Source of the DNA: Clostridiales bacterium
GTDB taxonomy: Bacteria > Bacillota > Clostridia > TANB77 > CAG-508
Length of the DNA: 64,000 nt
Assembly (NCBI GenBank): GCA_003534295.1
Contig: DPDV01000008.1
Span: 9,460 to 73,459 of the forward strand
Direction: 5' to 3'
Position 1 is the stretch's first letter; each line of letters starts with the position of its first letter. This document shows positions 16,895 to 18,867 of the stretch, piece by piece. Under the pieces are notes generated by a model. That model was not told where the DNA came from, searched no databases, and saw only the letters and a list, made by a program, of their open reading frames with translations. A program made the position numbers and the translations under genes.

Positions 16895-18025
16895 ATGAAA
16901 GAGTTACCTTCACATTTAGTATCAGAAGATTTTTATATATGGTTTAATATAAAGGAAAAAGAAGAATATTACTCAACACCATTATATTTATATAATGTAC
17001 TGAGAAAAGATACAGACAAAGAAAATGATGAAGAAAAGACGAGAGATGAAACAAGAGTATATTTAAAGTTGGAAAAAGATATTTCTAAAACAAAATTAAA
17101 TAGAAAAAAGGAAATTATAAAACATCCTTCAACTATTTATATTCATTATGCAGAAAGTATAGGAATGTTACTAATTAATTTTTTAAATGCTGACTTTTCT
17201 TCTTTTGCATCTGCATATAATACTTTCTTTTATGCCTATGGTTTTGAACTTATAAAAGAATATGTACCTTACATATATTCGAAAAATGATGAATTTATAA
17301 CAGATATAGAATTTATGGATATGTTAGAAGATATTTATAATACATGTTTAGATGATTTATTAGAATGGCAAGATAATTTTAGAAAATGTGTAGATTTTGT
17401 ATATAACTTAAATGGAAATGAAGAATATAAGGAACAGTCTATATCTTCAAAGTTTGTTGCATACGCAATAAAAAACGATATTTATACATATTCTCAAGAT
17501 GTGGAAGTAATTTTAGACAATTATATAAATATACATAATCGTCATCACAATGAGAGTATTGAACATTTGATGAAAGGTATTGAAGATAAAAACCCAAACT
17601 TAGAATTGCATAATGTTTATACAAGTACAAAATTAAGAAGTATTTGCTTTACAATATTAGATCAACTTGTAAGACAAGAAAATCTACCAATTAAAACTTG
17701 CCAAATTTGTGGTAGGTACTTTATTCCAACATTTAGGCAAAATGAAATATATTGTGATTTACCCAATGTTGATGGTAGTGCAACTTGTAGAGAAAAAGGT
17801 GCAACTATAAATTATAAAAAGAATTTGGAGAGTGTTCCTGCTTTAGGTTTATATAGAAAGATGTATCAACAGAAGGTTATGGTGGTTTATAGGAATAAAG
17901 AAGATAAAAAGATAAAGAAAGATTTTGATAAATGGAAAAAGGAAGCACAAGATAAAATTAAGCTATTTAAGCAAGGTAAACTTGAAGAAGATAAATTATA
18001 TAATTGGATGATTGAGAATAAATAA
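16895..18025 (+). CDS. hypothetical protein (376 aa) with a C-terminal CxxC...C...C zinc-ribbon-like motif; island cargo
   Basis: RBS GGAGG 7 nt upstream. Contains CQICGRYF...YCDLPNVDGSATCREKG. No family recognised. Confidence 0.6.
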   Translation: MKELPSHLVSEDFYIWFNIKEKEEYYSTPLYLYNVLRKDTDKENDEEKTRDETRVYLKLEKDISKTKLNRKKEIIKHPSTIYIHYAESIGMLLINFLNADFSSFASAYNTFFYAYGFELIKEYVPYIYSKNDEFITDIEFMDMLEDIYNTCLDDLLEWQDNFRKCVDFVYNLNGNEEYKEQSISSKFVAYAIKNDIYTYSQDVEVILDNYINIHNRHHNESIEHLMKGIEDKNPNLELHNVYTSTKLRSICFTILDQLVRQENLPIKTCQICGRYFIPTFRQNEIYCDLPNVDGSATCREKGATINYKKNLESVPALGLYRKMYQQKVMVVYRNKEDKKIKKDFDKWKKEAQDKIKLFKQGKLEEDKLYNWMIENK

Positions 18026-18114
18026 TATAAATATCATATATAATGTGTTTTACAAAAGTACAATTATATGATATATTAATATTATTAATTTTATAAATTG
18101 TAAAGAGGATAAAT

Positions 18115-18867
18115 ATGAGTTTAATAGATTCTTATGATGAGAGTGAAGAAGTTGTTAAGGCTGAAATTTTAACTAGAGGACAAAAAGAACTCCCAAAAAC
18201 TGCAATTGTTTGCTTTAAAAAAGAGTTGATAGATGTTGTGAAGAATAAAGAGGAATTTGAAGAATATAGTGAGATTAATGTATGTGGTGAGGAAATTAAA
18301 ATATATAAAACTCAAATTGGTAAAGAAAGTGTTATTTTATATAGAACTTTAGTTGGAGGTCCGGCAACAACTTCAATGATGGAAGAAATTCATGCTAGAG
18401 GAGTTGAAAATTTTATATTCTTTGGATCTTGTGGGGAACTTATCTCAGATATGAAAAAAGGAGCATTTATTATACCAACAGAAGCATATAGAGATGAGGG
18501 AACAAGTTACCATTATATGCCAGTATCAGATTTTGTAAAAGTAAAAACAGCAACACGATTAGAAGAAATTTTTAAGAAGAAAAATATTAATTATGAGTTA
18601 ACAAAAACATGGACTACGGATGCTTTATATAAAGAAACTAGAAATAAAATAAAAAAAAGGATAAAAAGTGGTTGTAAGGTTGTAGAGATGGAATGTGCAT
18701 CTGTCATGGCTGTGGCAAATTCAAGAAATATTAATGCTTATCAGTTTTTATATTCAGATGATACACTTGTTGGAGAAGCTTGGGATATAAGAACTTTAAA
18801 AGAGGATAGAAGTTTTATATTAAAAGAGTGTTTGAAGATTGCTACTGAAATTGTTAAAGAAATATAA
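18115..18867 (+). CDS. PNP_UDP_1 (purine nucleoside phosphorylase / MTA-nucleosidase) family protein; island cargo
   Basis: AIVCF...GGPATTSMMEEIHARGVENFIFFGSCG...VVEMECASV, the typical nucleosidase fold motifs. RBS AAAGAGGA. Confidence 0.7.
   Translation: MSLIDSYDESEEVVKAEILTRGQKELPKTAIVCFKKELIDVVKNKEEFEEYSEINVCGEEIKIYKTQIGKESVILYRTLVGGPATTSMMEEIHARGVENFIFFGSCGELISDMKKGAFIIPTEAYRDEGTSYHYMPVSDFVKVKTATRLEEIFKKKNINYELTKTWTTDALYKETRNKIKKRIKSGCKVVEMECASVMAVANSRNINAYQFLYSDDTLVGEAWDIRTLKEDRSFILKECLKIATEIVKEI

Follow-up and report, generated by a model that had tools for sequence, protein, structure and literature searches.

Our analysis of a 64,000-nucleotide stretch of genomic DNA from a Clostridiales bacterium (assembly GCA_003534295.1, contig DPDV01000008.1, positions 9,460 to 73,459 of the forward strand; hereafter the window) centers on two neighboring genes at positions 16895 to 18867, the first encoding a protein of 376 residues that belongs to the DUF6076 family and the second a protein of 250 residues with the fold of purine nucleoside phosphorylases (PNPs). 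We consider it likely that this interval marks the boundary between backbone and cargo in a fossil integrative mobilizable element (IME) with a MOBV-type relaxase, and that the PNP-like protein is the product of the first gene of a truncated cargo block, where it would act as a hydrolase serving a radical S-adenosylmethionine (SAM) pathway. A first-pass annotation of this DNA had taken the two genes for a cargo module of their own, a candidate defense or nucleoside-processing system. Its outline of the locus stands: both reading frames are as it described them (16895–18025 and 18115–18867, separated by 89 bp), and they lie in a mobile island, which is delimited by perfect 76-nt repeats at a tRNA-Gln gene and carries int, xis and mob genes. 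The pairing itself does not hold. A cysteine-motif protein and a PNP domain next to an integrase mimic a defense pair, and what lies here is a backbone gene followed by a cargo remnant. The parts are of known kinds, a MOBV IME with a defense-rich slot and an enzyme of the nucleoside phosphorylase-I (NP-I) fold, and they leave two leads: the unstudied DUF6076 family, which marks that slot, and a rare radical SAM block linked to a leucyl-tRNA synthetase (LeuRS).

DUF6076 is a backbone gene next to an exchangeable cargo slot

The 376-residue protein, previously assigned to no recognizable family, matches Pfam DUF6076 (PF19553), a family of unknown function, with 42.3 bits against a cut-off of 23.5 (E 8.5e-11, residues 266–356). 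Its open frame (16880/16895–18025, plus strand) contains an ATG at 16895 that corresponds to the start methionine common to full-length homologs, more than 336 of which were found in gut metagenomes, all carrying the same precomputed domain. We surveyed the genomic context of the gene in loci L001–L010 and in 80 further metagenome loci (L109–L188), at 60–99% identity. The gene order is the same in all loci surveyed, with int, xis and orf155 on the minus strand, DUF6076 on the plus strand, a set of variable genes, and Mob_Pre on the minus strand. DUF6076 is divergent from the orf155–xis–int genes and stands directly upstream of a slot whose genes are swapped from one element to another, and its distance to mob ranges from 1.3 to 8.4 kb (median 3.7 kb, 42 complete loci). 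The first gene downstream falls into 22 unrelated clusters across 58 loci, mostly of defense type. Based on the conserved order and the variety of these clusters, DUF6076 is a fixed backbone gene and not cargo, present whatever the cargo may be.

The genes found at this first position of the slot include PDC-S02 (a YhcG/DUF1016 nuclease), PDC-S20 (a KAP NTPase), HEPN_Apea and HEPN_Swt1, AAA_15/21 ATPases of the Gabija, PARIS and Septu kind, OLD/GajA-like and AriA-like proteins, Schlafen/AlbA_2 ATPases, DUF3800, and a radical SAM protein of 331 residues. The commonest of them (L135 4661–6196 and 14 other DUF6076 loci) encodes a protein of about 500 residues combining Schlafen/AlbA_2, HATPase_c_4 and winged-helix domains, with weak matches to pAgo-associated PADLOC models. 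The stand-alone radical SAM gene occupies the first cargo position in L120 (11393–12385) and in L119, and its product may be viperin-like. One DUF6076 gene with 94% identity to that of the window has a Gabija-like pair downstream of it instead of the PNP gene. MOBV IMEs are abundant in gut Clostridia and carry defense genes (PMC12084326), and the earlier expectation that such an island would be a defense hot spot is borne out by the sister elements. DUF6076 marks a large family of small mobilizable elements in gut Clostridia (approximately 2,500 clusters at 50% identity), whose slot amounts to a catalogue of interchangeable anti-phage genes, making DUF6076 a useful anchor for mining new defense systems.

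Could the two genes make up an anti-phage system, with DUF6076 as a sensor or partner and the PNP-like protein as an effector that would deplete nucleotides upon infection? The company that the slot keeps in sister elements (PDC-S02, PDC-S20, HEPN, GajA/OLD, AriA-like proteins and Schlafen-type ATPases) would suit such a role, and PNP domains serve as ATP nucleosidase effectors in the CBASS and Detocs systems (bioRxiv 10.1101/2023.01.24.525353). The co-occurrence counts strongly disfavor it. DUF6076 accompanies every kind of cargo, and the PNP gene follows it directly in one of the 80 metagenome loci, L109, which is the window allele; the arrangement is limited to the element's own lineage (L011 and L022, in the undeleted form, L029 and L109). 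In the reverse direction, DUF6076 is present in one of the best 80 PNP loci from named genomes and in none of the other 79, that one being L029, in which the same element has decayed further. The co-occurrence of homologs that the first-pass annotation proposed to look for is confined, from either side of these surveys, to this element. Defensive PNP domains, namely Cap17 of CBASS and DtcC of Detocs, make up a clade of their own and occur as fusions with sensor domains (bioRxiv 10.1101/2023.01.24.525353). The PNP-like protein resembles them in its PNP_UDP_1 domain and in the phosphate-independent cleavage of an N-glycosidic bond predicted for it, but it is a bare domain without a sensor or receiver domain or a cyclase or kinase partner, and it is encoded next to biosynthetic enzymes and LeuRS. 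Neither of the two proteins is matched by a PADLOC model at E ≤ 1, and judged by these hidden Markov models the PNP-like protein is not placed in the defense-associated clade. In addition, the PNP gene moves with the radical SAM–LeuRS genes into sites outside IMEs. We regard a two-gene defense system as highly improbable.

What, then, might DUF6076 do? The cysteine motif noted earlier is real: Cys269-x2-Cys272, Cys287 and Cys298, encoded at 17699–17788 (plus strand), are invariant in an alignment of 57 homologs with 52–94% identity, and no conserved catalytic-looking motif was seen in the same alignment. In the C-terminal half of the protein this zinc-ribbon-like motif is followed by long basic helices. 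The AlphaFold2 model is of good overall quality (predicted local distance difference test score, pLDDT, 84; predicted TM-score 0.74), yet the Foldseek comparison proposed for it returned nothing below E 1 from the PDB, and a sequence profile search of the PDB found no match. The best match in BFVD is weak and labelled only by a TFIIB-type zinc finger. The wider family comprises 2520 representatives (clusters at 50% identity), all of them single-domain proteins of 300–440 residues, and the ten longest contain no extra Pfam domain. Since IMG/VR holds a single distant locus, DUF6076 is not a phage gene, and a tblastn search of the PLSDB plasmids found no match. Neither iterons nor clear operator repeats were found around DUF6076 or mob, leaving a role at a replication origin unsupported. 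PADLOC, PHROGs and NCBIfam offer no informative family for DUF6076 or the PNP-like protein, and a literature search found no paper on DUF6076. We infer that it is a non-enzymatic, zinc-ribbon nucleic-acid-binding protein serving the element itself, likely in the control of the rightward, cargo operon or in the upkeep of the excised circle, and that it would be the partner of no particular cargo. The near-consensus promoter reported upstream of the gene is there (TTGACA-17-TATTAT, 16753–16781, plus strand, 11 of 12 positions matching), and sites of this kind are not enriched in this AT-rich stretch relative to shuffled sequence.

The PNP-like gene opens a transferable five-gene block

The intact relatives of the cargo show what the window has lost. 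In these, the PNP-like gene is followed by genes for a B12-binding radical SAM enzyme, a pyridoxal phosphate (PLP) decarboxylase-like protein, an oxidoreductase of the GFO/IDH/MocA family and LeuRS, spanning 8.2 kb in total. Locus L011 contains a 96%-identical PNP-like protein, a radical SAM enzyme of 475 residues, a Pyridoxal_deC protein of 555, the oxidoreductase of 469 and a LeuRS of 808, followed by Mob_Pre. In a blastn comparison with L011, window positions 17288–19252 align at 96.6% and 19251–24238 at 94.7% identity, and L011 1968–6310 is absent from the window. A deletion of 4343 bp has removed the three middle genes, leaving the PNP-like and LeuRS genes behind. Its left edge is at codon 37 of the radical SAM gene and its right edge about 45 codons short of the oxidoreductase stop, with 2 nt of microhomology at the junction (19251/19252), where a 37-codon 5' remnant of the radical SAM gene (19141–19251, plus strand; 95% identity to the L011 enzyme by tblastn) is joined to a 3' remnant of the oxidoreductase gene of about 45 codons (19252–19376, plus strand; blastn and tblastn). 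The deletion allele is also present in the independent assembly L109.

The intact five-gene block occurs in three contexts: in IME copies (L011 and L022–24), at a chromosomal site outside any IME (L017–19), and in L190. Positions 192–8341 of L190 and 780–8943 of L011 form a contiguous alignment of 8.2 kb at 84% identity within unrelated flanks, with shared edges that lie about 48 bp before the PNP start and about 65 bp beyond the LeuRS stop. The two ends of the block have diverged commensurately between these loci (PNP 86.8% identity, LeuRS 88.7%). Given the recurrence in three contexts, the contiguous alignment and the similar divergence, the transferable unit extends from PNP to LeuRS and is not the DUF6076–PNP pair. 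Both genes that survive in the window are under purifying selection, with ratios of nonsynonymous to synonymous substitution (dN/dS) of 0.10–0.26 for PNP and approximately 0.10 for LeuRS.

The PNP-like protein as a predicted nucleoside hydrolase

The fold assigned to the 250-residue protein (18115–18867, plus strand) from its GGPATTSMMEE and VVEMECASV segments is confirmed by Pfam (PNP_UDP_1, E 3.5e-26, a single domain) and by its AlphaFold2 model (pLDDT 86), for which Foldseek returned the 5'-methylthioadenosine (MTA) phosphorylase of S. solfataricus as the best match (1JDV, E 5.6e-18, TM-score 0.71–0.75). Udp, DeoD and a short AMP nucleosidase follow by sequence and structure, and the profile match to the hexameric NP-I phosphorylases has an E-value of 1e-24. 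The protein falls well short of the NCBIfam equivalog cut-offs for deoD (41 against 232 bits), udp (50 against 280 bits) and MtnN (NF004079; 28.3 against 169 bits). The earlier alternative of a housekeeping MTA or S-adenosylhomocysteine (SAH) nucleosidase is therefore carried over in part: nucleoside processing comes closer to the evidence than defense, but the MtnN assignment fails, and conserved metabolic synteny was not seen in the best 80 PNP loci.

Residues were mapped by HMMER profile alignments to 4LNH, 1JDS, 3QPB and 2AC7. All of the phosphate-binding arginines of the hexameric NP-I phosphorylases (R24, R43* and R87 in DeoD; R30, R48* and R91 in Udp) are replaced, with L38 at the arginine of the GDPxR motif, E60 at Udp R48, and F103, which is nearly invariant in the subfamily, at DeoD R87/Udp R91. 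Other hallmarks shared with S. solfataricus MTA phosphorylase (1JDS), DeoD and Udp are retained, namely the serine of the G-S-x-G (GS(C)G) loop, the E-M-E-C ribose motif, and an invariant D216 equivalent to D204 of DeoD, the acid at purine N7. Because the three arginines are replaced and Asp216 is kept, the protein is probably a phosphate-independent hydrolase of purine (adenine-type) nucleosides. It differs in this predicted chemistry from the phosphorylases whose fold it shares, and an ordinary uridine phosphorylase, the name given to it by JGI, was considered and set aside because the phosphate site is missing.

Two genomes of Lachnospiraceae encode a PNP-like homolog with 34% identity directly before methionyl-tRNA synthetase (L079 10001–12864; L108 8830–10187), and in L012 the third gene after the PNP-like gene encodes threonyl-tRNA synthetase. 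We considered adjacency of PNP and aminoacyl-tRNA synthetase (aaRS) genes as a general rule and dropped it, as 75 other loci lack an aaRS gene; these cases are probably coincidence.

A proposed role beside the radical SAM pathway

Radical SAM enzymes that depend on B12 release 5'-deoxyadenosine and often SAH, and nucleosidases of the Pfs type relieve the inhibition that these by-products cause. With such chemistry in mind, the simplest link between the PNP-like protein and its operon is that it may clear 5'-deoxyadenosine or SAH, serving the adjacent radical SAM pathway. It would resemble MtnN/Pfs as a radical SAM helper in being a predicted adenine-nucleoside hydrolase encoded beside a radical SAM gene, although its scaffold is like that of hexameric PNPs and not like that of MtnN. 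Alternatively, it may process or detoxify a nucleoside-type product of the pathway.

How does LeuRS fit into this arrangement? The LeuRS gene of the window (19393–21819, plus strand, 808 residues; TIGR00396, 947 bits) is intact and the last of the block. Its product is complete and canonical, with HIGH-like and KMSKS motifs and an intact editing domain in alignments to PDB entries; the HIGH region reads HLGHWFNF, compared with HMGHLKNY in T. thermophilus. The G+C content of the gene is 0.42, against 0.25–0.30 in its surroundings. In the intact copies it starts 13 nt after the oxidoreductase gene, and in the window the deletion has left it under the perfect promoter of the operon (18959–18987). 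No riboswitch or T-box was found by Rfam upstream of the radical SAM remnant and LeuRS, and the gene is the single LeuRS match in the 64-kb window. An aaRS gene inside an operon of biosynthetic-type enzymes is a feature of L011, L017–19, L022–24 and L190, and not of the window, where the enzymes are deleted.

In biosynthetic gene clusters, aaRS genes provide immunity or tRNA-dependent steps (bioRxiv 10.64898/2025.12.02.691738), and the block may be a small cluster of this kind with LeuRS as a self-resistance copy. Like the clusters with resistant synthetases (agrocin 84 with its AgnB2 LeuRS, indolmycin, albomycin and the tiarins), its intact form is an operon of tailoring enzymes with the aaRS gene last, no T-box and a shared promoter; it differs in that the set of B12-binding radical SAM, PLP decarboxylase-like, GFO/IDH/MocA and NP-I-fold proteins matches no described pathway, and its product is hypothetical. 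A literature search for LeuRS self-resistance in combination with radical SAM clusters found none. Taken further, the block would be an undescribed cluster of human-gut Clostridia that makes a nucleoside-type inhibitor of LeuRS and is spread on IMEs marked by DUF6076, with LeuRS as a replacement for the target and possibly the PNP-like protein, cleaving the toxin, as immunity factors. The strain of the window would then be an immune non-producer, its deletion allele having dropped production and kept protection. We put this proposal forward tentatively and consider it doubtful; the window LeuRS fits an immune non-producer, and fits a replacement of the native leuS equally well. The rare mobile operon of B12-binding radical SAM enzyme, PLP enzyme and oxidoreductase with a dedicated LeuRS is a concrete candidate for efforts to find translation inhibitors of human-gut origin by way of resistance genes.

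Several observations weigh against tying the PNP-like protein to the pathway, and they make a serious rival, if an unlikely one, of the view that it is an independent nucleoside-salvage enzyme that was carried along, functionally unconnected with either the operon or DUF6076. Its family is widespread, occurring in at least 598 species genomes from Clostridia, Oscillospiraceae, Lachnospiraceae and Streptococcus in varied contexts, and source annotations name the protein a nucleoside or uridine phosphorylase. Of the best 80 PNP loci, 79 have no block or IME genes nearby. The gene stands alone in L012–16 (88% identity), and it is the only intact gene of L029 (1–1951; metagenome-assembled genome CAKPNJ01, an uncultured Clostridia bacterium), where a 3' fragment of the integrase runs directly into the final 110 DUF6076 codons, and the PNP gene and then attR-proximal DNA come next. 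Within the block itself, the PNP gene has its own terminator-like signal, a perfect 20-bp hairpin directly after its stop codon (18869–18912, plus strand; folding energy −18.8 kcal/mol, z −6.5), and the radical SAM–LeuRS operon has its own promoter, a TTGACA-17-TG-TATAAT element on the plus strand that matches at 12 of 12 positions and includes an extended −10. The G+C content of the PNP gene, 0.29, is host-like, against 0.36–0.42 for the other four genes of the block, and a cluster around a 52%-identical radical SAM enzyme in L025 has no PNP gene in view. The choice of hydrolase over phosphorylase is, moreover, read from alignments, and the product and target of the proposed cluster, like a second leuS copy, are hypothetical. 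On the other side, the PNP-like gene has stayed next to the operon in three genomic contexts, where the divergence matches and the block has the same edges, the loss of the canonical phosphate site sets the protein apart from ordinary DeoD and Udp enzymes, and none of the NCBIfam equivalog cut-offs is reached. A hydrolase that would serve the radical SAM pathway remains the reading that we prefer.

The surroundings of the block in other genomes bear on a further possibility, that all five genes act as an anti-phage chemical defense, in which a viperin-like mechanism, production of a modified nucleoside, would block phages at replication or translation and LeuRS would protect the host. The block sits in the slot for defense cargo, pairs a radical SAM enzyme with nucleoside-cleaving chemistry, and in L017 has Schlafen-type, NUDIX and AAA_28 genes as neighbors within a variable region; a sister element carries the stand-alone 331-residue radical SAM gene in the same slot. 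A full aaRS is not part of any known defense system. No component of the block matches PADLOC (the PNP-like protein was searched, and no such family is among the slot matches), and IMEs carry cargo unrelated to defense as well (PMC12084326). The B12-binding radical SAM family is rare, with 59 matches among 5.8 billion proteins. Its 52%-identical relative in L025/26 keeps the decarboxylase-like and oxidoreductase genes, and L025 (365–12957) adds a LytTR response regulator and kinase, a NusG-like antiterminator, a small open reading frame (ORF) and a phosphatase resembling HAD/5'-nucleotidase (NT5C), with no LeuRS in view. This locus looks like one for a secondary metabolite; an antiterminator and a LytTR two-component system are typical of secondary-metabolite and bacteriocin loci. 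Chemical defense by the whole block appears to us a slim prospect.

A different conserved cluster, which also contains an aaRS-like gene, surrounds B12-binding radical SAM homologs of 44–46% identity in L020 (4250–15546) and L027 (4296–13767). Its genes encode, in order, a short RelA/SpoT-like protein, an alanyl-tRNA synthetase reduced to its catalytic domain (455–459 residues), a protein of about 500 residues without assignment, a HemN-like radical SAM protein, the B12-binding radical SAM protein, a NUDIX protein and an AMP-binding enzyme.

A fossil element in a tRNA-Gln gene

The source element occupies positions 14475–24266 (9.7 kb) and is inserted in the gene for tRNA-Gln(CUG) (14445–14519, plus strand; ARAGORN and Rfam). 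A repeat search placed the 76-nt direct repeats, identical at every position, at 14475–14550 (attL, comprising the 3' half of the tRNA gene and a terminator hairpin) and 24191–24266 (attR). The integrase is a tyrosine recombinase pseudogene (14646–15820, minus strand; Pfam Phage_integrase and SAM_3) with a frameshift near 15425 that splits it into ORFs of 242 and 110 residues, and an intact integrase of 393 residues used as a tblastn query matches it in two pieces in different frames. The neighboring excisionase-like HTH_17 gene is intact (15908–16120, minus strand; Pfam E 7.6e-10) and adjoins int in 80 loci. Of the conserved backbone frame orf155, of about 155 codons, two pieces remain (16191–16650, minus strand; tblastn with the intact L009 copy); its sole library match is weak and Sigma70_r4-like. 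The MobV (Mob_Pre) relaxase pseudogene (21969–23274, minus strand) is broken into three frames, with Pfam matches on two pieces and three tblastn pieces to an intact Mob of 415 residues. Next to these frameshifted genes, xis, DUF6076, PNP and LeuRS are intact.

These are real pseudogenes, as the integrase is also broken in L109, an independent assembly of the same allele with 99.5% identity over 13 kb. The copy in the window, judged by its reading frames, is an immobilised fossil, and since int and mob are pseudogenes, its excision and its mobilization by a helper are predicted to be lost. The element nonetheless has the makeup of a MOBV-type IME, with an integrase and an excisionase by the att site, repeats derived from a tRNA gene and a relaxase of its own without a conjugation pore; the 9.7 kb contain no ORFs for a type IV secretion system and leave no room for them. 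Like the MOBV1-type IMEs of gut Firmicutes (the Faecalibacterium IMEs and those with Tn4451-related relaxases; PMC12084326, PMC5704250), it has an integrase and excisionase at one end and Mob_Pre/MobV at the other, lacks a type IV secretion system, is integrated at the 3' end of a tRNA gene between direct repeats and belongs to elements whose cargo is rich in anti-phage genes. It differs from them in having one exchangeable slot directly preceded by a DUF6076 gene and, in the window copy, in its immobilisation by the int, orf155 and mob pseudogenes.

The exact proteins of the window (HCF65047.1, HCF65048.1 and HCF65049.1 at NCBI, from 'Clostridiales bacterium') each recur on about 1000 public contigs; it follows that a prevalent uncultured species carries the fossil element either at fixation or at very high frequency. 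A deletion allele this common raises the question of whether the host species now depends on the acquired LeuRS.

Two further features were noted. A 19-nt inverted repeat at 23496–23539, upstream of the relaxase pseudogene and within a non-coding stretch of 0.9 kb before attR, is a candidate for the hairpin of an origin of transfer (oriT). Farther downstream in the window, 6S RNA (Rfam RF00013, 97.9 bits) is encoded at 37471–37654 on the minus strand.

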